DNA of 64,000 bases. Source: Octopus vulgaris. Taxonomy: Eukaryota. The DNA lies in contig OX597819.1 of the NCBI GenBank assembly GCA_951406725.2, forward strand, positions 106,020,001 to 106,084,000, read 5' to 3'. How positions within the stretch are numbered: the stretch's first letter is position 1; every line of letters begins with the position of its first letter. Below the pieces are notes generated by a model. It did no database searches and was not told the origin of the DNA. It was given only the letters and a program-made list of their open reading frames with translations. Below, one piece after another: positions 6,570 through 53,114 of the stretch. The position numbers were made by a program, and so were the translations under genes.

Positions 6570-7225
6570 TTTCAACAATTGAGGGTAAAATTAATTAATT
6601 ATTAATCAATTTCACCAAGTGTTCAGTATGCAAAGGGACCATTTAAGGCGAATTCAAATTATTACATTATATAAAAGGGCTTAGTAAAATAAATTACTTT
6701 GCCGCATACTGAACTCATTAGAAATAGCAGCTAAAAAACTTTTTTAAAGCTATTTCTAATACTTAAAGAAAATCTCTCTCATATATAGTGTTTGCTTAAT
6801 TCAACTCACAAAAGTTTGGGGGTAAGGACATTAAAAAATCAAATGCTAAGGTTATTTGAGAACGTACGTTTCAAGATTAGTCAAGATTTGGGTTTGTTGG
6901 CACTGTTAGTTACGAGCGGATCTTCGAAAGGGTATGTTCTTACTTTCAGTGTTTCCAAATCCAAACCAAGGAGTTTCTGAGCTGATGATAGAAATGTTTT
7001 TTTGACTAATCTTGAAACGTACGTTCTCAAATAACCTTAGCATTTGATTTTTTAATGTCCTTACCCCCAAACTTTTGTGAGTTGAATTAAGCAAACACTA
7101 TATATGAGAGAGATTTTCTTTAAGTATTAGAAATAGCTTTAAAAAAGTTTTTTAGCTGCTATTTCTAATGAGTTCAGTATGCGGCAAAGTAATTTATTTT
7201 ACTAAGCCCTTTTATATAATGTAAT
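6570..7225. mobile_element. (TA)n-flanked inverted-repeat element (PLE-type inverted terminal structure, non-coding)
   Basis: Arms 6661-6884 and 7002-7225 (224 bp, identical by eye), 117-bp spacer, ~90-bp unpaired extension on the left, TA tracts both sides. Confidence 0.85.
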
Positions 7226-7744
7226 TATATATATATATATATATCAAACTTGTATGTGGATTACGTCTAGAGTAGGAATATTTGTTAGAAATATATGTGT
7301 CCATATATACATCGGTGTATGTGGATATATTCTATTTAATCCATATGTTTGTATATCATATTATGTCATATTTCACTTAATTGTATCGTATTATATTGTC
7401 TATATCTGTTTTATAAACACTTAGAATGCATATAAGAATATTCATAGTGCATATACAAATAGATATATGAATGTACCTTTTATATTTATTTTACTTTATT
7501 CTATTGTGCCTCTTGGAATAATAAGTGTCTATATAAGAAACTGATATTTGTGCATATATAAATGTATATATATACATATATAACTGTATATGTATGGGAA
7601 AATATAAATGTAGATATGGATATATACATGCATATGTATGGGAAACCATGAGAAACAGTCTCTTCTTTCACTTATCTTGGTTCCATTGTATCCAACGATG
7701 CGAAGTTGGATAAAGTAATTGTATATATGAAATAATCATTTAGA

Positions 7745-15271: not shown

Positions 15272-15505
15272 CAAGTAGGTACTGCAAATTTAGGGTGAAT
15301 ACTTGATAAGTGTAAGCACCTGTATACGCCAGCTAGTGGCAGAGGTTAGAGGGAAAAGGATGTCGCGGTACACGTGTTATATCGATTATACACTTTTATA
15401 TTTTTTATATCTATTATACACTGATGTAAGAACAGGTCGTTTATAAACCTTGAAACACGTGTACCGCGACATCCTTTGTTTCTGTTTTTGATTTCATTTG
15501 ATATA
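15272..15505. mobile_element. (TA)n-flanked module with 24-bp inverted repeat and 3' half of a hammerhead motif
   Basis: AAAGGATGTCGCGGTACACGTGTT (15355-15378) is inverted at 15454-15477. GAAA-CACGTG-TA-CCGC matches the motif at 52.4 kb. Confidence 0.6.
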
Positions 15506-15540
15506 TATAAGTATGTATATATATATATATGTATAAATAT

Positions 15541-15801
15541 TCAATAAAGGGTGGAATATAATTAGTTTAATAAAATTAATCAATTTCACCTAGTAGATTT
15601 GTCGGTATGGAAAAGACCATATTTGGTAAGGGTTATAATAATTATAATAAAGGGTTAAATGCAACAAGTTGGTCAAAACCAGATACCGAAAATATTAGAA
15701 ATAGCAGCCAAAATTGGTCAGTATTTCCTCTACTAGGAGACTTTTTACTAGTAGAGGTAATACTGACCAATTTTGGCTGCTATTTCTAATATTTTCGGTA
15801 T
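15541..15801. mobile_element. (TA)n-flanked inverted-repeat element, short copy of the 17.5-kb family
   Basis: Arms 15683-15736 / 15748-15801 (54 bp, 1 mismatch); left portion nearly identical to 17457-17650. Confidence 0.85.
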
Positions 15802-17055: not shown

Positions 17056-17408
17056 TCTATGTATCTATGTGCATGTGTTAGTGGGTAAGTTTGTATTTGT
17101 GCGTGAATGTGCCGCGTGTGTACTGCAGTAAAAACTATAGTTGCCAGAACATAACGTTTTTTCATTGATCTCTATAGATTACGTACTGTGATATCATTCA
17201 TCTTGTGAGAAACAACACGGTTTATTATATGCTTATATGAACCAATGAAATATCGACAGCATTTGGGGTGGGGCATTAAGTAGCCTTTTGGGCATTACGT
17301 AGCATTTGCATCTCGGGTGAAAAAAACCCCCAAAACACCACTATACATTTTGTTTGAATGCACCCCGATGTGCACAAATGTCATTATTGATGTATATATA
17401 TGTATATA

Positions 17409-17447
<39 letters not shown>

Positions 17448-17454
17448 ACAATAT

Positions 17455-18630
<1,176 letters not shown>

Positions 18631-22791: not shown

Positions 22792-23333
22792 TAATAATAA
22801 TAAATTTTTTTGACCAATAGGACCCCACCTAAAAAAAAAAATCACTGATGGTGATGGTGATAATGGTGATGATGATAATAATGATAGTAATAGTGCTGAT
22901 AATCTATCTATCTATCTACACACACACAAACCCAAAGAGTTCAACCAACACAAAGAAAGTATTATTTGACAGGCAAGAACTCTGGTGTTGAAGACAGTCA
23001 GCCAGCCAACCACCAAGCCAGCCAACGAGACAGACAGACACTACTGTGATGGTGATAATGATAAAAAAAAAAATAACAATAATAAGATACTGCTGTGACT
23101 ACACATAAAACAATATCATTGATGATGATGGTGGTGATGGTGATGGTGATGATGATAATGATGATGGTAATGGTGGTGATAATGATGATAGTGATGGTAA
23201 TGGTGATGATAATAACAATAATAAGCCGACTACGGCTGCTATAATGGTACGATTATAATTGTAACGGCAATGATGGCCGTCTCCCCACGAGCCAATCAAA
23301 GCTAAAAAATGATAACATTATCGTAGCACCAAA

Positions 23334-24653
23334 ATGTTTTTGGAAACTAAAAGGAAAACTAAATCAGTATACCAAATCGCTTGTCCTATGGTTAATCTGG
23401 AAGCGCGTCCCCCAGGGATGAGCCAGCCTGGGATCGAAAAGTCATCAACTGGCACAAACTCTTCTCCGAATACGGACATGGATGGTCACTTGAACGGGAA
23501 ATCCCCCAACTCGAGCCCTCCAAGTTCACCACCACAACCACCACAGAAAGAAAAATGTAAGCGGAACAAATGGACCCGAGAAGAGTATAAAGAAGTAATA
23601 TACGCTTATTACTATGCATTAGGTAGGCCATCTCAAGAGAGACACACCGCAAACTCTTACAGTATATGGAGAACACGGAATCAAGACAGTAGGCCCTATT
23701 TGGACGAGAACAAATTAGCAAATGTGAGGAGGGATATCTTTAGAAATAACAGACTCACAGACAGTGAAATAAGCGCGATCAAGCACGCAACGGAAAATGA
23801 CATAAATATAAGACACAAAGGAAATGAAGAATCAGATGAACAGTATAGCCCGCCACGAGGCTTAATTGAAAGACTGCCATCTGACCAAAGTACGCAAATG
23901 CCTGAAGATACAAGAAATTCTATTGTACCTGTTAAAGATAGCCAGGAAAACGAAAAAACAACAGTAACTGAAGATCTCGCATTCGCTGAAGAACACAGAG
24001 AGTCTATGGCAGAAATGAGGCAGAAAATCCTGAATACGCTTGAAGTTGTAAGACATACAAGTATGAATGATAGAGAACCACTTCATAAACTCTCAAATAC
24101 AAACCAAAATAAAAAACAAATCCAAATTGGCAACTATGTAACAAATGAAATAATACGAGAATTAAAACCTGATTTGACTGAGTTAAATGAAATTATTTAC
24201 GCTTCTGCTAGGGCAATTGAAACCAGCTGTATGCCCCCGAAAAAACAAAGAAAACAAAACCTGGGAAGAAATCAAACCTGGAGAAGAAAAATTGAAAAAG
24301 AGATTGAATTTATGAGAGGGGAAATATCAATATTAAATGAACTAATATGTGGAAATGACGTAAGATCCAGAACAGGAAGAAAGATGAAGAGAAAATTTGG
24401 ATCCTCACCAAGAGAAGAACTGATATCAATAAAAGAAACGCTGAAACAAAAAGTCCAAGCAAAAGCCCAAAGAATACGAACATTTGAGAAGAGAAACAAG
24501 TTTTACAAGCAAAATAAGCTGTTCACATCAAATGCCAAAAAATTCTACAGAGAAATAGGGAAGGAGAAAGTAACCGTTAAAGACCCCCTCCCATGGAAGA
24601 AGTTCAAAACTTTTGGAAAAGGATTTGGAGTGACAAGAAGACGTACAACATAA
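23334..24653 (+). CDS. R4/Dong polyprotein, N-terminal part (frameshifted near 24590)
   Basis: 439-aa ORF with KWTREEY..VIYAYY and LANVRRDI motifs, and the R4-type pre-RT region AKAQRIR..KRNKFYKQNKLF..N.KKFYREI. Confidence 0.85.
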   Translation: MFLETKRKTKSVYQIACPMVNLEARPPGMSQPGIEKSSTGTNSSPNTDMDGHLNGKSPNSSPPSSPPQPPQKEKCKRNKWTREEYKEVIYAYYYALGRPSQERHTANSYSIWRTRNQDSRPYLDENKLANVRRDIFRNNRLTDSEISAIKHATENDINIRHKGNEESDEQYSPPRGLIERLPSDQSTQMPEDTRNSIVPVKDSQENEKTTVTEDLAFAEEHRESMAEMRQKILNTLEVVRHTSMNDREPLHKLSNTNQNKKQIQIGNYVTNEIIRELKPDLTELNEIIYASARAIETSCMPPKKQRKQNLGRNQTWRRKIEKEIEFMRGEISILNELICGNDVRSRTGRKMKRKFGSSPREELISIKETLKQKVQAKAQRIRTFEKRNKFYKQNKLFTSNAKKFYREIGKEKVTVKDPLPWKKFKTFGKGFGVTRRRTT

Positions 24654-27010
24654 ATGCTGACTGGATTATACAAACTGAAGGATCCTACCAAAATTTACAA
24701 CAACAAGCATGGGAAGACATCACAATAGCAGACCTAAGAAAGGCACTCACAAAGGCCCATAATTGGAAATCCCCCGGTAAAGATAGGGTGCCGAATTTCT
24801 GGCTCGCATCGCTCCCATGCGCACACGGTAAGCTAGTTCAGCTGCTCAATGGAATTATGAGAGACCCAAAGAAAACACCTGAATGGTTAGCAAGTGGCAT
24901 TACTTACCTACTCCCAAAGAATAACGAAACCAACCTTCCAAAAAACTATCGGCCTATAACCTGTCTATCCACCACGTATAAACTCCTAACATCTATCCTG
25001 GCGGAGAAAACATATGCATTCATAGAGAAGAACGATATTTTCCCCATTGAACAAAAAGGGTGCCGCCGAGGCTCTTACGGATGCAAAGATCAACTGCTAA
25101 TCAATCGTATGATCCTTGAGAACTGTCACAACAAGCGCAGAAATCTCAGCACCGCATGGATTGATTACAAAAAGGCCTTCGACAGTATACCGCATCCATG
25201 GATCTTGAGATTGCTGGACATCTTCAAAATTTCCCCTGTGATTTCAAACTTCCTGAAGCACAATATGTCGTTGTGGAATACGAATCTCCAATTATACCAC
25301 TCTAATGGAGTACTTGCCTCAGAAAATATAAACATCAACTGTGGAATTTTTCAAGGTGACTCACTTTCACCTTTAATAATCTGCATAGCCCTAATACCCC
25401 TTACAAGTGAATTAAACAGAACAGGGTATGGGTATAAAATTGCCAATAAAAAAATAAGCTATCTATTTTATATGGATGACTTAAAACTTTATGGTAAAGA
25501 CAATAATGAACTTGAAGGCCTATTGCGCACCGTGAAAGCATTCAGCGATGACATCGGGATGGAGTTTGGACTTGAGAAGTGTGCCAAGAAAGGGAAAGTG
25601 AAGACCACAAATTCAGTCGTGTTAGATGTTGACACAGTCATAAGAGAGCTTGAGCAAGAACAAACATACAAATATTTAGGGATAAATGAAGGCTCTGGTA
25701 TTCAGCATGCAAGCATGAAAGAGAAAATCAGGAAGGAATGTTATAGGAGAGTTCGTGCAGTCCTGAAATCTGAACTAAATGCACGTAACAAGGTGTTAGC
25801 TATAAATTCCTTAGCAGTTCCAGTTGTTACTTATAGCTACAATGTGTTGAACTGGAATATGAGTGAAGTAAAGAATATAGATAGAAAAATACGCAAGCTG
25901 CTGAGTTGTAATAGGATGCACCACCCAAAGGCAGACGTAGATCGCCTTTACCTTCCCAGAGCCCAAGGAGGTCGAGGCCTGATCCAATTTGAACTAGCTT
26001 ACAAAACAACCACAATTGGACTGGCCAAATATCTCGAAATATCGAATGACTGGATGCTAAAGCTCGTGGAAAATCACGAGAGACGAAAGAAGCTTCATTC
26101 TATCATAAAGGAAAGCAAAAAATTTGCTATTGATCTCGTGCAGGATACCCAAACTGAACAACCCGAGGGAAGTACGGCAACTATTGTTGCAAAGAAGGTG
26201 AAAATGATGGCAATGAAGAAAGCGCACGAGCAATTGGCTGATAGGTGGGAGGAGAAACCTCTGCACGGCAAATATGTGACCCGCAGCAAACAAGCTGATG
26301 TTGACCAGAAGCAAACCCATCAGTGGCTACGGAGCTCAGGGCTAAAAGCAGAGAGCGAAGGTTTCATCCTGGCTGCTCAAGATCAAAGCCTATTAACCCG
26401 GAACTACCAGGCCAATGTCATGAAAAATGGAGCAGACCCAAAATGCCGATTCTGCAACGACATGATTGAAACAGTGGACCACCTAATCTCTGGATGTAAA
26501 GTCTTAGCACCAGTGGAGTATAAATTAAGACATGACGGAGTTGGCCAATATCTCCACTGGCTAATAAGTCGGCATTACAATATCAAAACTGCCGACAAGT
26601 GGTATAATCACCACCCTGAGGCTGTAACTGAAGGAGAAAATGTAACGATTCTGTGGGACTTTCCAGTACATACAGACCGAACCATCAAGGCCAATAAACC
26701 AGATATTGTTGTGAAAGACCAAAACAATAAAGTTTGCTTATTGATCGACATGAGCATCCTCTGTGATCATAATATCTCAGCGAAAGAGTTTGACAAGCTC
26801 AGAAAATATAAAGACCTACTCATTGAAATTGAGAAAATGTGGCATCTCAAGGCGGTTACAATACCAGTGATCGTAGGAGCACTAGGAATGATCAAGAAGG
26901 GAACCGAAAATTATATGAGAATGATCCCTGGCTTACCATCCCTGCAAGAAGTGCAAAAGATTGTCTTAACTGGTACATCACACGTATTGAGAAGAGCATT
27001 GTCGATGTGA
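24593..27010 (+). CDS. R4/Dong polyprotein: reverse transcriptase, CCHC finger and restriction-like endonuclease
   Basis: KSPGKD, NYRPITCL, WIDYKKAFDS, GIFQGDSLSP, YMDD, YKYLG, GGRGL, CRFC..H..SGC, RHD, KPDIVV..LID, K..KY. Confidence 0.93.
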   Translation: MEEVQNFWKRIWSDKKTYNINADWIIQTEGSYQNLQQQAWEDITIADLRKALTKAHNWKSPGKDRVPNFWLASLPCAHGKLVQLLNGIMRDPKKTPEWLASGITYLLPKNNETNLPKNYRPITCLSTTYKLLTSILAEKTYAFIEKNDIFPIEQKGCRRGSYGCKDQLLINRMILENCHNKRRNLSTAWIDYKKAFDSIPHPWILRLLDIFKISPVISNFLKHNMSLWNTNLQLYHSNGVLASENININCGIFQGDSLSPLIICIALIPLTSELNRTGYGYKIANKKISYLFYMDDLKLYGKDNNELEGLLRTVKAFSDDIGMEFGLEKCAKKGKVKTTNSVVLDVDTVIRELEQEQTYKYLGINEGSGIQHASMKEKIRKECYRRVRAVLKSELNARNKVLAINSLAVPVVTYSYNVLNWNMSEVKNIDRKIRKLLSCNRMHHPKADVDRLYLPRAQGGRGLIQFELAYKTTTIGLAKYLEISNDWMLKLVENHERRKKLHSIIKESKKFAIDLVQDTQTEQPEGSTATIVAKKVKMMAMKKAHEQLADRWEEKPLHGKYVTRSKQADVDQKQTHQWLRSSGLKAESEGFILAAQDQSLLTRNYQANVMKNGADPKCRFCNDMIETVDHLISGCKVLAPVEYKLRHDGVGQYLHWLISRHYNIKTADKWYNHHPEAVTEGENVTILWDFPVHTDRTIKANKPDIVVKDQNNKVCLLIDMSILCDHNISAKEFDKLRKYKDLLIEIEKMWHLKAVTIPVIVGALGMIKKGTENYMRMIPGLPSLQEVQKIVLTGTSHVLRRALSM

Positions 27011-27205: not shown

Positions 27206-27790
27206 ACCCCCCCCCAGTGCTTGAAAATGACCACATCTCACTCCTCTGGAACTTCACCATTCAAACTGACAGAAAGATAGATGCCAATAGGCCAGACATC
27301 ATATTGAAAGACTTCAAACAAAGAACATGCCTCCTCATTGATATGACTGTCCCAATCGATATAAACGTATCTGTCAAGACCTACCAAAAACTGAGCAAAT
27401 ATAAAGATCTTGAGATAGAAATCAGCAAAATGTGGAAGCTGAAGACTAAAACAATACCTGTTGTCATAGGTGCCCTGGGAATGATAGCAAAAAGGGGCTG
27501 ATAGCTACCTAACTCAGATACCAGGAAACCCCAAAATGGCAGAAATTCAAAAGACAGTGCTCATGGGAACTGCTCATATCCTACGCAAAATACTTTCTAT
27601 GTAATCTCAAGGCTTAAAACAAACATAATTTTCGTTTTTTCTTTTTTTTTTAGACATTCATTAGTACACCCCCCCCCAAATATATGGCACACTAGGCATA
27701 ACAACATGAACTTCCAACCTGTTGTCTCTTGAGGTCTCTGGGTGAGACTTGGAGCCAACTTGTACAAATATAAAGCAATAAGTCAATAAT
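27206..27790 (+). mobile_element. R4/Dong 3' fragment, second subfamily
   Basis: LLWNFTIQTDRKIDANRPDIILKD...KYKDLEIEISKMW..IPVVIGALG. The 3' UTR (GTCTCTTGAGGTCTCTGGGTGAGACTTGGAG) differs from the upstream element; TAA tail. Confidence 0.9.
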
Positions 27791-27820
27791 AATAGAATAA
27801 TAATAATAATAATAATAATA

Positions 27821-27851
<31 letters not shown>

Positions 27852-27861
27852 TAGCAACAAC

Positions 27862-30420: not shown

Positions 30421-30469
<49 letters not shown>

Positions 30470-30478
30470 ATAATAATA

Positions 30479-30511
<33 letters not shown>

Positions 30512-30856
30512 TTAACGTTCTATTTGTACGAGTTGTCTCCAAGTCTTACCCAGAGACTTCAAGAGACAAGTTAGAAGTTCATGTTGGTGTTAGGCCTAAG
30601 GTGTCATATATTTGGTTTTGTACATTTATTGTTCTAGAGAATGTTTAAGAAAACAAAATTCTGAGTTTGTTTTAAAATCTGAGATTACATAGGCAGTATT
30701 TTACGTAGGTTATGGGCATTTCCCATGAGCACTATCTTTGGAATTTCTGTCATTGAGGGGTTTCCTGTTTCCTTTTGGTATCATTCCTGAAGCACCTATA
30801 ACAACAGGTATTGTTTAAGTCTTCAGGTTCTACACTTTGCCAATTTCTATTTCAAG

Positions 30857-30857
<1 letters not shown>
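30512..30857 (-). mobile_element. R4/Dong 3' fragment (subfamily of 27206-27790)
   Basis: Reverse complement of LEIEIGKV..IPVVIGA and the same 3' UTR; embedded in (TAT)n. Confidence 0.85.
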
Positions 30858-30901
<44 letters not shown>

Positions 30902-32281: not shown

Positions 32282-32542
32282 TATGCATTATGCATTCATA
32301 CATTCATAAAACTTACGTACATGCATATTTATATAGTTACACTCATACTCACGCATTCTTTTGCGTATAAAATCTTATAAGTACTGTACTAAAATGTATT
32401 GAGTCATTCATCAGGTTAATGTTAAATTAGTTTTATAATAAAACTTGGCATAAACTCTAAAGTTAATATGTAAATACAAACTTACACACACATACACAAA
32501 ATATCTATAATGTATATATAATACGTAATGCATATACAGGGT

Positions 32543-32925
32543 GTGGAGGTGCAATGGCCCAGTGGTTAGGGCAGCGGACTTGTGATCGTAGGATACGGTT
32601 TCGATTCCCAGACCAGGCGTTGTGAGTGTTTATTGAGTGAAAATACCTAAATCTCAACGAGGATCTCGCAGGGGTGGTGGCGATCCCTGCTGTACTATTT
32701 CACCATAGCTTTCTCTTACTCTTTCTTCCTGTTTCTTTTGTACCTGTATTTCGAAGGGACAGCCTTGTCACACTCTGTGTCACGCTGAATCTCGCCGAGA
32801 ACTACGTTAATGCAACACGGGTCTCTGGAGTGCTCACCCACTTGCACGTTAATTTCACGAGCAGGCTGTTCCGTTGATCGGATCAACCAGAACACTCGTC
32901 GTCGTAACCCACAGAGTGCCACGAT
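32543..32925 (+). mobile_element. tRNA-derived SINE (family B, tail type 2) with 11-bp TSD
   Basis: Same head as 18265; flanked by ATATACAGGGT at 32532-32542 and 32926-32936. Confidence 0.85.
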
Positions 32926-32928
32926 ATA

Positions 32929-33762
32929 TACAGGGTTCAGTGAATAAATTACCGTCTAAATAACGCAAAAATGAAAATAACACTGACGTCTCATTTTAAC
33001 AGATATATTTACCAAAATTACCTAAAAGTATTTTGAAATACTAAAGAATAACTTTATTCAATAAAATCGCCATTGGCTTCATCCACGGCCTCAAGACGAC
33101 TTCAGAATCTCTTGCAATTCTTCTGGACGGCCTCCTTGTTTAAGTTGGTGGATGCTGCCTTAATCACTGCATTTATTTCATCTTTGCTGTTACAAGGAAT
33201 TTTGTTGGTCTCTCGTGCAACTCGTTCCACACGTAATGTTAGGGATGATGTGGTCGTAGAAATTGTCAGACAGCCATGACTGGGTTCTTCTGCTTGTGTG
33301 GCGTGGCGCAGAATCCTGTTGCCACACATCGGGTCTTCCAGCAACCACCCTCCTGACCGAGGGCAGCACTACCTCGTACAAGCATTTGATGTATGTATCA
33401 GCGTTGAGTGTGAGGCCGTGTGAGAAGATGAATGGAGGCATAAAGTCGCTATCACTACTGGTCACTCCAAACACATTGATGTAGACTGGATGGTTGATTG
33501 TTATCACTCTCAGTACATGCGAACAGGTTGCACTGTCTTATATTGAAACTCAAACACTCTGAAATGTTCGTATTAAAATTTCTGGAGTGAACGCCACGCA
33601 GTACAGCATGTCGTTTCCAAATTTCTAGTAGAGTGAATTGCGTCACGGTGTTGTTTTTCTCACAGACGGTGCCCAACTGACTCTGCTATACTGTGTAGTC
33701 GACAAAATCAAAAACAATGTGCATGTGCGAAATTAACAATATAAAATGGCGACAATTTACCC
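32929..33762 (-). mobile_element. Internally deleted Tc1/mariner-superfamily element (maT/DD37D-like)
   Basis: TA-CAGGGT terminus; VFGV.SSD..MPPFIF..GL.LNAD.Y...L..VVLP and WQQDSAPRHTS. Confidence 0.75.
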
Positions 33763-34557: not shown

Positions 34558-35685
<1,128 letters not shown>

Positions 35686-35705: not shown

Positions 35706-37134
35706 TACAGAAAAGTAAGTATAAGTTTTTATCAAAGTTGTTTTATATTCTATAATTTTAACAGACAATAAATACAATATTAATTGTTATTGTTCGAGAT
35801 TTTGGTGTAATTTGAGAGGATAATACAAAAGTTATAGATGGTTTAGTAATTTACTGCAAAACCCATGGCGGCCAAAATGATCAGAATGGTTGCTTTTACT
35901 CCGTGTTTTAGTATATTTAACCGACGAACTCTAATGTTTTGAGTTTATTTACGTGACGGTTCGTTTACTAAACATTAGTAAGAATATCTGCAGTGTACTT
36001 TGTTAATATAATACCAGTTACTCCGTTACCAATTCGTCAGCAGATTATTAAGCTTCGAAAGAAGGATAATTTAAGTATTGGGTCTATTGCAAAGATTGTT
36101 AACAAGTCAAAAAGTGTTGTTCACGGTAGTCTTAAGGTCTGCAATGATTGTGGTTCGTGTGAAGCATGAAGGTATACAGGTAGGCCAAGAAAAACGACCA
36201 AGAGAGAAGATCGTGCTATGGTAAAGTTGGTTAAAAAGGACAGATTTAAAACTGCTGCTGCTGTTTCTCGGGAAATGAGCATTGTACTGAAGAAAACGTT
36301 ATCTCGAAAAACTGTCTCATCGTTTAGTTGAACATAACCTACAAGCAAGATCACCTACAGTGAAGTCACTGATCAGCTCCAAAAATAAAAAGGGTCGTCT
36401 TACCTTTGCAACCGAACATGTGTTGTGGTCTCAAGAAAAATGGCAAACAGTGCATTTCAGTGATGAATCTAAGTTTATGTTATTTGGCTCAGATGGGAAA
36501 AGGTACGTTCGTTGAAAAGTAGGTGAAAAATTGTCGCCTAAATGTCTTAAAACTAGTGTTAAATTCGGTGGAGGAAGTGTCATTGTTTGGGGGAAGATAT
36601 CTGGAGATGGTGTGGGGCTCTTTGGTGCGATTAAATGGAAAGGTAAATGCAGGAGTTTATAAACAACGTGTAAAAGATCATGTCTTGGCTGTGCTGAGAA
36701 ATTCAACTAAGCGACCACCCATATTCATGCAGGGCAATGCCCCATGTCACAAGGCTAAGGTGGTCATGAACTTCCTCAAGGCTGAAAAGGTTATTATTAT
36801 GGATTGGCCTGCTCAAAGCCCAGATCTCAATCCTATCGAAAATGTGTGGAATATTCTAGGAGAACGTTCGAAAGCCAGAAATCCTAAAACAACCGAGCAA
36901 TTATGGAATGCCCTTCAGGAAGAATGGAATAAGATCACCTAGCAAGAAATTGAAAATTTAATTTCCTCATGCAGTCGAAGATGTCAAAGTGTGATTGAAG
37001 CTGAAGGGCTTCACACTAAATATTAAATAATTCCAGTATTCTCTGTCATGTTTGATTATTTTGTTATTTTTTCAACCATTCTGATCCTTTTGGCCGCCAT
37101 GGGTTTTGCAGTAAATCCCTAAATCATCCATAAC
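35706..37134 (+). mobile_element. Decayed Tc1 (DD34E) transposon
   Basis: GRPRKTT, FSDESKF, GGGSVIVWG, FMQGNAPCH, WPAQSPDLNPIENVW, GLHTKY*. Inverted repeats at ~35823-35892 / 37073-37134. Confidence 0.9.
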
Positions 37135-37135
37135 A

Positions 37136-38150
37136 TCGCTAAACTAGTCCTTCCTGCGAGAGAATTAAAATAAAATTACCTCGCAGAGGGGTAAAAACAA
37201 GCAAGAAAAAAATGTATCACAAACAGGACGTAAAAACGATACAAATAAAACTACAAAATAAAATACAAGATAAAAATACATGTACAAGAAAATACAATAC
37301 GAGAAATGAAAAGAAAATACAATACGAGAAATAGAAATAAAAATAAACAAGAAAACAAACGAAAAGGCCTTTTTTCTGGCTGAGACGAAGGAGACTCTAG
37401 CAGCGCATGAGAATACAAATGTGTGTCTTTTTAGTTTGAAAGCCGCGTGTGAAAGGAAGTAGTTTTGGCTAGCAGTGGCAAAGATGAGGAGGAGCGAGAG
37501 AGAGAGATAGAGGAAGACAGGCGGCTGAGAGAGAGAGAGAGAGATGAGGAAGAGTGAGAGAGAGAGAGAGGAAGATAAAGCAAAGAGAGAAAGAATTTCG
37601 CGTCATAATTATATATAAAACAGTACTACGAATCGAATCGAACACGACGCGAAGGCGCTGTCAAACAATAGTGTAATAAATAAAATATATGCATACATAC
37701 AAACATATATGTGCGTACCTACATCTACATGTAGATATACATGCGTATATAAATATATATACACGTGAGTACAGGACACCACAACTAGACGTAGAACTCA
37801 ACGAGAAACGAAAAACGAAAACGGAAAAACCATTTTTTTACAACAGGAAAACAGAGACATGGAACTCAACGAGAAACGAAAACGGAAAAACCATTTTTTT
37901 ACAACAGAAAAAACAAGTACAGGGCATACTACACAAGGAAAAATCCCCTATCATCAGCTGTTACTAGTTCGGCTCCAGCGTGTTTCGAAGGCAAGACAGG
38001 ACACGACTCGCTAAACTAGTCCTTCCTGCGAGAGAATTAAAGTAAAATTGCCTCGCAAGGGGTAAAAACAAGCAAGAAAAAAATGTATCACAAACAGGAC
38101 GTAAAAACGATACAAATAAAACTACAAAATAAAATACAAGATAAAAATAC
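37136..38150 (-). mobile_element. Non-coding element with 143-bp terminal direct repeats (872-bp period) inserted in the Tc1 right inverted repeat
   Basis: 37136-37279 is repeated at 38008-38150; the Tc1 IR resumes at 38151 (TTGTA); homologous to 51.8-52.3 kb. Confidence 0.8.
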
Positions 38151-38388
38151 TTGTAATCTGTTTTTAACATTTTCTTATTATTATCAAAGAATGTAATTCT
38201 GTTTCTTAATACTCTTGTGATAACCAGAACTTAACACAACAAAGCTTATACAAAGCTTTACATTTTACCTTTGGCAATCTTTTTCTAAAACATTGAAACC
38301 GGTCAAGTCAATAAACATCTTTAAAATTGCATTTTCAAACCTTCAATCATATATATTTCCACTCGTGCGGTACCTTACAACTTTACTT

Positions 38389-38462
<74 letters not shown>

Positions 38463-47596: not shown

Positions 47597-48043
47597 TAAA
47601 TGAATATATATATATATGATATTTATAGGTATATGTTTATACACTCTCACACACCAACACATGCATACACGCGCACACGCACACGTACGGGGGCACGCAC
47701 GTACACACACATACACGCCCGCGATGACTAATTACAGAAAAACCTAGTTGAAGAATCACAGAAGCTTAACGAAAACTATCCTACATATAATTTCTGCTAT
47801 AAGTTGGCGATTCAATCTTCCTGTTTACTAGTTCATAATCGCATTTATTTCTTATTACCTGTATATGAATTTCTGTGGGCAAAGTCAAGTTAAATGAATA
47901 AGTGAATATGGTCTAGTTAACGATGTCCATATACTATACAGTTCTATATTTAAGAGATGAGGAATTATTTACGTTATGAACAATATTTACATTTGACGGA
48001 TATTCGCCCTCATCTTGTTCGTTGTTAATACAACGTTTTACAC

Positions 48044-48110
48044 TCCACTACCTGGAATCGAACTCGGAATCTTGGGGTTAGTACCCCGCGCTCTTAACCG
48101 CTACGCCGTG
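48044..48110 (-). promoter_or_regulatory. tRNA-like Pol III head inside PLE pseudo-LTR
   Basis: GGCGTAGCGGTTAAGAGCGC-GGGGTACTAACCCC-AAGATTCC-GAGTTCGATTCC (A box, anticodon-like arm, B box); partial second copy at 50703-50737. Confidence 0.7.
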
Positions 48111-48136
48111 GGCAATTATGGAGTGAATTTTAGGGC

Positions 48137-50450
48137 TTATAAATCTAATATTCTCCTATCCTTCTTTAATACCGGTTCCCATATGCTGTTCATATCTGCA
48201 CTCGGTCTACTTAGGTGGTAGTTGTGTCCTAGCATATGTGCCGCTTCTTTTAGTTTTCGTATTTTCCAGTGGTGTCCTCTGCCTATTATCTTAACTTCAT
48301 CCCGCAAGGGGGGGGGGGTCTCCATTTTTCCATACACGCTCAGCTATGCCCGATTTATCAATATCTCCCCGTGTCACAGCTTTGCGATGTTCCTCTACCC
48401 TTATTTTGAGGGGGCGGCATGTTTCGCCATTGTATAACCTACCACAGCTGCATGGGATAGAGTACACGCAATTCTTGGTCATATTCTCTTCTATTGCTTC
48501 TTGTACACGAAGGAGATATTTGCAAAGTGTTGCATTACTTTTAAATACTGTCCTGATGTCATATGAGCCGCATATCTTTCGTATCTTTACGGAGAAGCCT
48601 TTCACATAGGGTAGTTAGACTGTGGACAGTTTATCGATTTCATCCTCTCTTTTCTTTATGATTGGAGTGGAGAGTGTGCTTTTAGTGTAGTTGTTGCTTA
48701 ATAGATTGTTACTGAGCTTGATCATTTGTTCGTGGTGTGTATTACGATCGCTACTCATATCCATTGCTCGATGTTTTAGGCACTGAGCAATCCCGCTCTT
48801 TATACTGTATGGATGGTGGGAGTTGAAGTTGAGGTATCATCCAGTGAAGGTCGGCTTGCGGTATACAGATGTTCTGATCCATACTTGGTGCGTGTTAGTA
48901 ATACGTCCAGGAAAGCTAGCTGATTGTCTTTCTTTTTTCCATTGTGAACTGTATGGATGGCTTTATTGAGTTCACATGATCTAACTGCACTTGGACATCT
49001 TCCTGGTGGGGCCAGATTGTAAAGGTGTCATCAACATATCGTAGGTATAGTGTTGGTTTTAGTGGTGTTGATCCTAAAGCCAAATTTTCAAAGTTTTCCA
49101 TGTATATATTGCCTATTACCGGTGATAGTGGCGAACCCATAGCTAAAGCCTCCTCTATCGATATATATAAGTGTCCATACTGAAGTAGGTAGCTTCTACA
49201 CAGAAGGTCAACATTTCTATCAAGTTTTTTATTGGAATATTAGTGCGTTCTTTTAGATGGGTGTCTGTCACTAGTTTTTCTTGAATCACCGATAATGCTT
49301 CACCAGTTGGGCCTTTAGTGAACAGACTTATCTCATCTAGATTCACCATCTTGTTGGATTGAATGAGGGTATCCTTTATCGATCCTTTGAAGTGGGTGGA
49401 ATTCTCCATGTACAATGTTGACTTTCCTGCTAATGGACTCATTATATCCATAAGGAAGCGGCTCAGTGGGTGACATGCTGAACCTCTGCAGCTCACTATA
49501 GCTCTTAATTGAATACCATCCTTATGAATCTTAGGAAGACCGTACGTGTGTAGTTGTTTACTGTAGCGTTGAGTCAGTTGTCTGTACTTCATTGCTGTAA
49601 AGTGATGCTTGTTCATGATCAAAATCTGTGACAACCTCCCCTCTATTTTCAAAGTAGTGTCTTTCTTTACTTTGCCGTAGCTATCATCACTTATAAGACT
49701 TGCCAGTTTTTCCGAGTAGTCAGACTTGTTCATCACCTCTGTAACATTCCCCATTGTCTGCTGCAAGTATTATGATGGAATTGTCATTCTGTAGTCTTTT
49801 GATAGCGAACGTTTCTTCCTTAGTGATGTTTGATTTGGGAAGTTTCGCTTTTTCTAGTACCCTTTAGTTCATCTCCCTGATCTTTCGGTATCTTTATGGC
49901 TATCTCTTCAATAGGGGATATTATGTCCAACTATGGAATGCGCCTGATGGTTGTCGCAAAGTTGAGGTCTTTGTTTAGTACTGTTTCTTCAGAGCTTTCT
50001 AGATGTCGGCCACTTACATTAATTATTGCTTCAGTCTCCATTCTCTGACCTTTGAGTTTCATAAACTTCTTACTCTGGCGTGTCTGCAACTTTTCAAATT
50101 CTTTCATGTACGACTTTTCTAGATCTTGTTGGATTCTCTTTCTATCATCATCTCTGGTTATTTTTCTAAGTAATGAAGATAACATCTCTTTGATTTCGTT
50201 ATTTAGTTGATGTTTGTTCCAACGGTTGTAATGAATCCTCTCGTGGACGAGGGCACGTCCTGCCCTTTCCGTTACTCTTCTAGCTTTATATGAATCCACT
50301 GGTATCATTATATTGAAGCCAGGTGGTATTAGCTTTGAGTCTTTACATCTCCACAGGAAAATTAGATGGTTTGAAAGACGAGCTAGTTTTTGATGGAGTT
50401 TCTCTATATGTCTCCATTGAGGTTTTATGTCGGCTCCGTACCGATTAGAT
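48137..50450 (-). pseudogene. Penelope-type RT-GIY-YIG polyprotein (stops and frameshifts)
   Basis: NHLIFLWRCK...LIPPG, LNKDLNFA, YGLPKIHK, SLFT, MGSPLSP, RYVDD, NCVYSIPCSCGRLYNGETCRPLKIRVEEH, RKLKEA. Confidence 0.9.
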
Positions 50451-50542
50451 AATACAGTTCGATGTTTAAGAAACGAGGAATTATGTACATTATTTACTTT
50501 ATTTACATATGAAGGATATCTGTCCTCATCCTGTTTGTTGTT

Positions 50543-50588
50543 AATACAACCTTTCGGCTGATATACCCTCCAGCCTTCATCAGGTGTT
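50543..50588 (-). ncRNA. Minimal type I hammerhead motif in PLE pseudo-LTR (stem III mutated)
   Basis: AACAC-CUGAUGA-A-GGCUG(GAGGGUAUAU)CAGCC-GAAA-GG-UU-GUAUU; the other repeat retains AAACGUUGUAUU. Confidence 0.75.
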
Positions 50589-50636
50589 TTGGGGCAAATT
50601 TGGAACCTGGGTTCTCATTCCTAAGGTATTTTTCGA

Positions 50637-51205: not shown

Positions 51206-51789
51206 ATATATATATATGTATCCGTCTGTCTATTTATCTATCTAGCTATACACACACATACATACACACACACGGGTATATACAAACATATATTGATAAC
51301 TTAATAACGCTTGCGTTTGAGAAACTTGGCTTCATCGTCATCATCGCTCTGCGAATATGGAAAGTTTAAATGAGAGAAAGACCAAGCTGATAGTAACGAA
51401 TTACTTAAACCTCAGTGAGTAGTACACTTAATATCGGCTGTATAAGGAGCACTGATTGATGCATCCTACTGTGCATGGAGAACGGCATTAGGCATATTAC
51501 AGTGCGAGCAGCGATCATGCACATATTTCCTGGTAGCATCACTCTACTTGGCTAAAAGGGGAAATAGTTTCGGAAGGCGACAAGATAATTTTAAAATCCA
51601 TTCGATAGCTGTCGACCTCAATGAAGACAGTGTGTAAATTATAATATGATATAGTAAAGTATAGTATAATACAATATGAATATGATATATAATATAAACT
51701 ATGAATATAGTATTATATAATATAAAATAAGCAATGACTCATTTCCACACGCACACTCGCATTATCCTTCCTGTAATTCTTTTTTCTCC

Positions 51790-52320
51790 CCTTCATTTTC
51801 TCTCTCTCTCTCTCCTTCTTCGTCCTTTACTCACTCTTGTTGCTCACACGTGACCATCGTCCATCTTTTTTTCCTCACATGATCATCTTTATTTTCCTTC
51901 AGTCGGTCGCACAGACGAGAAGCATTCTTATATGTCACCTCTCTTATCTTTTCTCTTGTCAAAGAATATTCCTTTAGTGTTCGATACCTTACCTTATCTG
52001 GCCTAACGGCTCTCCATGTTTGTTTCCGTTTGGTTTGTTGTATGTCTCCACTGTCCTGTTTTTGTTACCAACTTTGACTTTCCGCAAATTTCAAATTTTA
52101 TTTTGGTTTGCGGGAGCAACTGCTTTACGAAACCTCATATTGTCGTTAATTGCTCAAAATATGGAGTAGATGAACAACCGACAACTGATGAAGGGTCGTT
52201 CTTTATGTTACTTGTCTTGTTTTCCATTTGTTTCTCTCGGTATTCGCATACTCGGTATTCGTATTTCATGTTGTTTGGATTTCGTGACGTCTTGTACCCA
52301 TATATGCATAAATATATACA
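51790..52320 (+). mobile_element. Diverged relative of the 37136-38150 element
   Basis: Same order of modules: (CT)n, CCTGTTT, GC-closed hairpin, CTGATGA-(A/T)GGG, GTC(C/T)TGTAC, TA-rich end. Confidence 0.6.
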
Positions 52321-52402
52321 TATATATGTAAGTATGAACATATATGTAGGGTTGCATATATATATATATTTATCAAAAGAAAAACAGGATGCAAAAGATT
52401 TA

Positions 52403-52489
52403 GCGGTACATATGTTTCTGGCTTTATTGGACAATTTATATCAATGCATAATTGATTTAACATGTATGTCAATAGCCTTCTTCAGCCGC
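52403..52489 (-). ncRNA. Type I hammerhead motif with long stem II and palindromic stem III
   Basis: GCGG-CUGAAGA-A-GGCU..(long stem)..AGCC-A-GAAA-CAUAUG-UA-CCGC in a (TA)n-flanked module (~52370-53050). Confidence 0.75.
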
Positions 52490-53114
52490 GTACAATTACC
52501 ACACCAAAGACATATATTACATTATAGCAGGTTTGAGAAGAGGTTTGGGAAAAAGACGAGTTTCGTTGGGAATGCAAACCCACATAGTCGTATACGGCAC
52601 AGCGAGACACCAAAACAAACGTCCATACCGTTTTTTCACTCGGTAAAGGATGAGGAGGTTGGATGTTGAGATAAAGAGGGAAGAAGTGGAAGGGGTGAAT
52701 CTTTAATGAAGTTGGGATCACAAAGAGGAAAAAGTATATGTATAAGTATATGTATAATTCTAAACATGATTATACAGGATAATAGTAAGTGCAAAATGTA
52801 ATAAAAGAGTAAAAATATTAAAAAAATAAGTATATAAATATATAAAGATACAAAGGATGTCGTGTGTCGGGTCTAAGGTTATAGAGCTGTATTGTGACAG
52901 TGTAGACGTGAAAAATAACATGGAAATACAAATAAAGATAAAGAAGCGAAAAAATAAAGACGAAAAATAAAAAATGAAGGTATAAAAAAATAAAAAAAAT
53001 AAAAAAGTGGACATAAAGATGAAGTAAGGTAAGAATAAGGAGATACAGAAATATATATATATATATTATTTATATTATATGATTGAACGCCACGCATCCA
53101 TTTCCAAGTAAGTT

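Follow-up and report, generated by a model that had tools for sequence, protein, structure and literature searches.

The 64-kb window (the whole stretch of octopus DNA analysed, 64,000 nucleotides) is AT-rich and crowded with microsatellites and decayed transposons. One of these, a decayed Tc1 transposon on the plus strand (35709..37134; DDE_3 match at 36523-36939, E = 7.7e-13), is the target of a non-coding insert on the minus strand (37136..38150). The insert is followed by a different high-copy repeat (38151..38390, plus strand), which lies head to head with the insert's 5′ end and ends in (TA)n. Just left of the Tc1 element, inverted repeats with 92% identity (34558-34676 / 35394-35518) surround a TATG-rich core in a MITE-like arrangement. 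Elsewhere the window holds a young inverted repeat of 227 nt (6658-6884 / 7002-7228; 99.6%, spacing 117 nt), direct and inverted copies of one repeat around TA tracts (15502-15801, 17390-17727, 17937-18449 and 32501-32726; 83-95%), and a minus-strand fragment (33190-33537) that looks transposase-like by eye and gave no match in a Pfam search. A tRNA gene search of the 64-kb window, which bears on whether the insert could be a tRNA-derived SINE, found none, although worn tRNA-like heads would escape detection.

The insert comprises 1.164 units of an 872-nt sequence, and computation thereby confirmed the period and copy number (1.16) given by an earlier, sequence-only reading. Its predicted RNA would have its 5′ end at 38150 and its 3′ end at 37136. 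The near-identical terminal direct repeats of 143-144 bp noted in that reading were recovered as a 5′ repeat or pseudo-LTR (38008..38150, minus strand, 143 nt) and a 3′ repeat (37136..37279, minus strand, 144 nt), separated by two substitutions and one gap, with all three differences in the 5′ arm. The 3′ repeat holds only the 5′ half of the ribozyme fold described below and stops 8 nt before the predicted cut. The unit is indeed non-coding: on its circularised form the longest ATG-initiated reading frame has 45 aa on the RNA-sense strand and 92 aa on the other. Behind the ribozyme, the tail contains an internal tandem duplication (37787..37912, minus strand; ~65 nt, 85%). A TA-rich tract (37683..37766) corresponds to the end of a relative near 52 kb and marks the usual unit boundary, and a CT-rich stretch with its adjacent segment (37328..37600, minus strand) is common to few relatives. 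Contig depth at 37328-37600 falls 10- to 100-fold below the flanks in all four runs, a dip that may mean that a unit of ~540 nt is much the commoner form and the 872-nt one a long variant of it. The fold of the whole unit has a z of -3.19 (20 shuffles) and its shape is not rod-like. The unit is present in sequencing runs of four organisms, with word shares up to 0.40.

Two near-identical terminal repeats would also be expected of a small LTR element (a TRIM or an LTR retrozyme) or of a local 143-nt duplication after the insertion of one unit. Of the LTR-type features named beforehand as contrary evidence, PBS/PPT and a TSD were looked for at the repeats and are absent. The insert ends TC..AC on the plus strand and GT..GA on the minus strand instead of TG..CA, flanking duplications of at least 4 nt were not found within -3/+6 nt of the ends, and neither a TGG-type primer site nor a purine tract accompanies the repeats; the first two observations agree with the sequence-only reading. 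Furthermore, the boundary of the repeat falls inside the ribozyme fold, the 52-kb relative ends at other points, and a local duplication cannot place the tail ahead of the CT-rich start. We regard both origins as very improbable.

The order of segments within the insert is permuted with respect to the relative (~51700-52385). The best of 44 rotations of the unit against 51601-52400 starts at ~37667, just past the TA-rich tract, and scores 458, versus 323 for the unit as it lies and a mean of 344 (maximum 394) for 100 block-shuffled controls. The permutation proposed earlier therefore holds; its original cue, the match of the TA tract to 52300-52371, is weak when taken alone (53.6 bits versus 51.8 for an unrelated TA tract). 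Homology of the TA tract to the relative by itself was rejected, as this score is not significant. The relatives look Naiad-like, in that their tails seem to end preferentially at the TA tract and not in random registers.

The insert begins inside the right inverted repeat of the Tc1 element. The inner inverted repeats of this transposon (35831-35892 / 37073-37134; 62 nt, 92%) are both recognizable, the right one stopping at 37134, while the outer right repeat is missing and the outer left end has been lost to (TA)n; relatives in all four runs have loose ends at 35708, indicating that the left end once extended outward with a second copy of the motif of the inner repeat. The Tc1 repeat had been thought to resume immediately after the insert. 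This proved wrong, since the outer left repeat scores only 31 against 38141-38400 and 370 of 500 shuffles score equally. The neighbouring repeat at 38151-38390 instead contains GAAAC and GUC blocks and an AATAAA, with no CUGAnGA in this copy, and appears to resemble the 3′ end of a Penelope-type pseudo-LTR. Its relatives show mixed loose ends before 38150, and a 2-nt AC is shared at the insert junction. A joint from 37134 to 38151 was absent from the 15 of 42 joints listed. Because the insert repeats differ by 2.1% and the Tc1 repeats by 8.1%, the insert is younger than the Tc1 element.

Minus-strand positions 37945..38062 of the unit form a predicted split-core, non-circularly permuted hammerhead, recognized by its core letters and by pairing. 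Its helices are helix X (38062-38058/37949-37945, 5/5 pairs), hairpin Y (38057-38051/38033-38027, a helix in the predicted fold), stem II (38025-38021/37991-37987, 5/5, with a perfect 5-bp partner upstream at 38025-38021), helix P0 (38020-38010/37973-37963, 10/11), stem III (38005-38001/37983-37979, 5/5) and stem I (37999-37995/37962-37958, 4/5). All hammerhead core letters are present, in the blocks GAAA (37986-37983) and CUGAUGA (37957-37951). Three nucleotides link stem I to stem II. Helix X closes the motif between A9 and G10.1, the core is opened by two extra helices, and we take the GA/GA loop to be kink-turn-like. By analogy with the hammerhead core (PMC10085705), the putative self-cleavage site lies after GUC, at 37999..38000. 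The order of blocks on the minus strand (GUC, GAAA, CUGAUGA) is the reverse of that in types I-III, and the order site-GAAA-CUGAnGA has been named type SGC in the available text of PMC10085705. Within a single unit, these blocks do not permit a standard type I, II or III hammerhead. Rfam models gave no match at the gathering score over the whole 64 kb; in 36900-38400 there were 16 weak matches, most of them to microRNA models and on the TA tract, which were taken as chance.

A strict S-G-C descriptor occurred in the window only at 37957 and in 1 of 100 shuffled windows (0 of 100 when the upstream stem II was included), and a descriptor with all helices but III gave two window sites (37945-38062 and the 52-kb relative) and none in 300 shuffled windows; both descriptors were written after the sites had been seen, and the second was tuned on these two. 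A plain SGC stem II would have only 4 bp with two G-U pairs in either window copy, in the unit after two inserted nucleotides, whereas the upstream partner is all Watson-Crick in the unit, the 52-kb relative and the consensus Naiad_Ovul. The minimum-energy fold of the motif alone differs from the proposed one and is not better than that of shuffles (z -0.71), as computed with a program that cannot model pseudoknots. The prediction for this motif is one cut in every 872 nt of minus-strand RNA, and we consider it likely that the motif does cut in the family. In this copy, which has a mismatch in stem I and two letters between the core and helix X, the ribozyme may be dead.

The worn 52-kb relative carries the same fold in other letters (52076..52197, plus strand). 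Its helices X (6/6), Y (8/8), II (6/6), I (6/6) and proximal P0 (5/5) are fully paired; G12 is changed to A and the strands of stem III are out of register. Hairpin Y has a loop (38034-38050, minus strand, and 52090-52105, plus strand) with a U-rich, UUAUUUU-like word that is also found in Naiad_Ovul. Shared in this way by the unit's left copy, the relative and Naiad_Ovul, the word is a candidate protein-binding site. Across a TA-rich tract, a type I-like hammerhead with a long loop II (52400-52490, minus strand) lies tail to tail with the relative.

Contigs of 6 of 24 listed sequencing runs (X1, X3, X5, X7, X10 and X17) were used in the comparison. None of the 30 positions in the core, stem II and stem III was variable (at least 4%), as against 21 of 52 other positions (Fisher p = 1e-5), in counts made on unphased contigs of other species from four runs (319, 325, 69 and 12 contigs), with an 80% alignment requirement that on short contigs favours conserved blocks. 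Two pairs of helix P0 changed on both sides in run X1 (unphased): 38020 T>G (75%) with 37963 A>C (59%), and 38011 C>T (49%) with 37972 G>A (88%). In ~100% of the same run, 37962 T>C turns stem I into 5/5 pairs, and the cut-site base varies only from C to U (24%). The helix X pair at 37947 is broken in 12% of X1 depth, and two indels in relatives touch stem ends (38005 and 37991). Contigs of two runs presumed to be RNA (69 and 12) cover the motif, a coverage that is silent about strand, ends and circles. A dip in contig depth at 38010-38016 is unusable as an end signal, and no cluster of mixed loose ends at 38000-38010 was found among the 22 of 87 rows listed. The viral contigs searched for the unit yielded no match. 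Two metagenome-contig matches (L001 and L002), with a GC content of 54-57% and lacking the cut-site block, were rejected as chance.

The closest described ribozymes are the type-SGC hammerheads (HRIMA-1 and variants; Eckert et al. 2023, PMC10085705). As presented in the accessible text, they have the same site-GAAA-CUGAnGA order, a linker of ~3 nt between stems I and II, a helix tying the far ends of these stems and a 5-bp stem I; the unit has their core letters (CUGAnGA, GAAA, NUH), S-G-C order and stems I and III. Their block C (CUGAnGA with its stem II strand) is assumed to be unbroken, whereas on the better of the two pairings the Watson-Crick partner of stem II in the unit lies upstream and, unlike in type SGC, two helices are placed between A9 and G10.1. 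The RNAs in that text derive from metatranscriptomes, with no known organism's genome among their sources, and their cutting was demonstrated; cleavage of the unit is predicted from sequence. Our literature search, in which subscription journals were mostly uncovered, found no paper with this ribozyme wiring or with SGC motifs in animal genomes. Within the same coverage, only PMC10085705 and PMC8557442 were relevant to the wiring.

The second of these sources describes Naiad elements (Craig et al. 2021, PMC8557442), which in its available parts form partial tandems, have inverted 5′ arms and hard-to-see TSDs and prefer (TA)n. The tandems, arms, (TA)n preference and hard-to-see TSDs liken them to the unit. 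Naiads are described there as being without a canonical hammerhead, with only cores or half cores, and Naiad_Ovul is marked as a half core. Read by eye, the last 190 nt of the Naiad_Ovul consensus in the supplement show the same order and helices as the unit motif (II 6/6, III 5/5, I 6/6, Y 7/8, P0 5/6 and X 5/6), and the record before it ends in the same fold. Naiad_Ovul has the triplet GUA and a 1-nt linker, its fold is followed by ~75 nt and (TA)n, and the strand behind its CUGAUGA cannot, by eye, form stem II. When two 8-letter words were searched for in the supplement, 6 of the 22 places found showed this order, a figure that is not a census. The six are two octopus records, three near-identical ones around Naiad_Aacu/Naiad_Anas, and a record ahead of Naiad_Mley whose stem I has only 2 bp. 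An exact-word search with four words of the two window motifs gave no match to a Naiad tail in this material; the demonstrated link of the unit's sequence to Naiads is the fold, read by eye. The unit further differs from Naiads in having no reading frame, in its length (872 nt versus 3.4-4.4 kb) and in a 3′ end beside the cut rather than at a TA tail; in this copy that end does not lie in (TA)n.

Some features of the insert recall a non-autonomous Helitron or another rolling-circle DNA element that overran its end: A|TC occurs at 37135-37137 on the plus strand, and a GC-rich hairpin stands 6 nt before CTAG on the minus strand. When the insert was checked for the full Helitron set (5′ TC, a 3′ hairpin with CTRR on one strand, and an AT site), the two signs proved to lie at the same end and on opposite strands. 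The insert continues 8 nt beyond CTAG, with no CTRR at 38150, and CTAG itself belongs to helix P0 and occurs neither in the 52-kb relative nor in Naiad_Ovul, so that this origin is disfavoured and highly unlikely.

Partial tandems forming pseudo-LTRs, without LTR ends, are a Penelope-like trait, and the insert is very probably a Penelope-type non-autonomous retroelement. A decayed Penelope-type element also lies at 47936-50614 (minus strand), with a direct repeat of 103 nt (47936-48038 / 50452-50554, 83%), a type I-like hammerhead core at 50583 and, by eye, a GIY-YIG-like motif; three frames of it that were searched had no Pfam match. The helper was probably a Naiad rather than another element. 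Alternatively, the same RNA and ribozyme could have been mobilized by an R2-like (Hero/R4-type) non-LTR element, its enzyme jumping from the RNA 5′ end to a 3′ end. An element of that general build is present at 23316-27010 (plus strand). It is nearly intact, with two overlapping frames (445 and 809 aa; RVT_1, E = 2e-27), a C-terminal zinc knuckle and a nuclease-like motif, has worn 3′ pieces at 27388-27853 and 30439-30864, and is presumably Hero/R4-like. Yet no CUGAnGA occurs in the 400 nt behind the reading frame ending at 27010, and each helix in the fold of the unit has its counterpart in Naiad tails, as does the U-rich loop of hairpin Y. The head-to-head arms and (TA)n ends are likewise Penelope-type traits in the available text of PMC8557442, and a helper of the Hero/R4 type appears quite improbable.

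The architecture as such, that is, non-autonomous Penelope-type partial tandems and retrozymes, is already known, and the idea of circle-copied retrozymes has been published. Metazoan non-LTR retrozymes (Cervera and de la Pena 2020, PMC7229834; Li et al. 2026, 10.64898/2026.07.22.740005), as far as these sources were available, are non-coding, low in GC and arranged head to tail, have a hammerhead core and no PBS/PPT, and have been proposed to use a Penelope-like helper. The unit shares the non-coding, head-to-tail organization with GC below 50% and without PBS/PPT. In contrast, retrozymes have type I hammerheads in each unit of 170-400 nt, at least two complete tandem ribozymes and experimentally observed circles, while the unit is 872 nt long, differently wired and known from DNA sequence, and the insert contains one complete motif plus half of a second. 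Like the insert, the non-autonomous Chlamys elements, MRC1 among them (PMC8557442), are Penelope-like and bear pseudo-LTRs, which in Chlamys were once taken for LTRs; unlike it, they come from green algae, with no such ribozyme described in the accessible text. Lacking the type I and size features, the unit is not assigned to the non-LTR retrozymes, which it resembles in its way of working, and is best called a non-autonomous Naiad-type element.

On balance, we favour an insert of 1.16 head-to-tail non-coding units, likely retrotransposed by a Naiad-type enzyme, whose motif would cleave the RNA at intervals of 872 nt. The internal predicted cut site is intact, and the 3′ end of the insert (37136, equivalent to 38008) falls 8 nt short of the cut. 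An end that stops there after crossing one intact cut site argues for a template that was a circle or an incompletely cut multimer: from a cut-to-cut linear monomer no more than one unit could be copied, and the additional 151 nt therefore require a ring, either closed or held by the ribozyme, or an uncut site of a multimer. A random break would end within 8 nt of the cut in ~2% of cases, for a landmark chosen after the fact.

In the proposed sequence of events, tandem transcripts would be cut at 38000|37999, and the broken Tc1 repeat would prime cDNA synthesis 8 nt inside the cut end of the RNA. The enzyme would copy 864 nt, cross an intact cut site and continue for 143 nt into a second round; the crossed site would correspond to a re-closed circle, a nick held by the ribozyme or an uncut site of a multimer. 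Finally, joining of the far cDNA end to the second repeat arm (38151-38390) would cost the Tc1 element its outer repeat, and for this reason no TSD would have formed. The head-to-head joint and the lost outer repeat would fit priming on both sides of a break, with deletion. According to the available text of PMC11167929, a Penelope enzyme can start at internal positions of its RNA and use either target strand; Penelope copies with junctions lacking a TSD are described in the accessible part of PMC3846280. Two points count against the proposed course: in the same text of PMC11167929, hammerhead cutting was not needed for insertion of the anole Penelope, and the usual Naiad end is the TA tail and not the cut site. 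The earlier proposal, in which a circular or multimeric RNA is reverse-transcribed over more than one unit, thus stands as regards anatomy and the absence of LTR features and gains a proposed cause not recognised at that stage, the rearranged hammerhead motif, but it does not stand as regards a clean insertion after which the Tc1 repeat resumes.

The chief competing explanation is an ordinary Naiad-type partial tandem, complete with its TA tail, that inserted into (TA)n beside the Tc1 element and later suffered a deletion. This deletion would have taken away the outer Tc1 repeat together with ~370 nt from the end of the second unit, and the closeness of the insert end to the cut would be chance. 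This explanation would account for the loss of the outer Tc1 repeat in one step and agrees with the preference of Naiads for (TA)n (PMC8557442, as available), with the 2-nt AC shared at the junction and with the loss of the left Tc1 end as well (loose ends at 35708). It requires, however, that an insert still young (2.1% divergence between its repeats) underwent a further event, and a break within 8 nt of the predicted cut, expected by chance in ~2% of cases, or perhaps 6% (an estimate) if three landmarks are allowed. We judge this course of events unlikely.

If the insert arose by copying past the cut site as proposed, the letters of the two repeats bear on the template. Both repeats have a T at 37217, where 99.4% of X1 depth has an A; this fits a single source and does not separate a circle from a homogeneous multimer. 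Several minority letters are common to both insert repeats. The G at 38050, one of the differences between the repeats, is common in the family (36% in X1 and 56% in X3), a hint that the template consisted of two distinct units and not of a single circle. A circular template or a held nick has close to an even chance in our estimation, and a multimer somewhat less than that. The most specific version, in which the split-core hammerhead, with a wiring held to be impossible in the published permutation scheme, cuts and re-closes an RNA of ~870 nt and the Naiad enzyme docks on the ribozyme, starts 8 nt beside the cut and runs round beyond its starting point, is less likely than not.

A rewired Naiad hammerhead would remove the exception of Naiads, which have been reported to thrive without a hammerhead, and its core-opened form would add to the six-permutation hammerhead scheme. 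Beyond the bare motif, the copy described here offers a unit running from cut to cut whose junction is intact and whose end lies 8 nt from the cut, a natural substrate for studies of cutting, ring closure and the start of the enzyme. The ring reading, if true, would reveal a class of retrozymes invisible to type I searches, and the insert would record rolling-circle reverse transcription directly in an animal genome.
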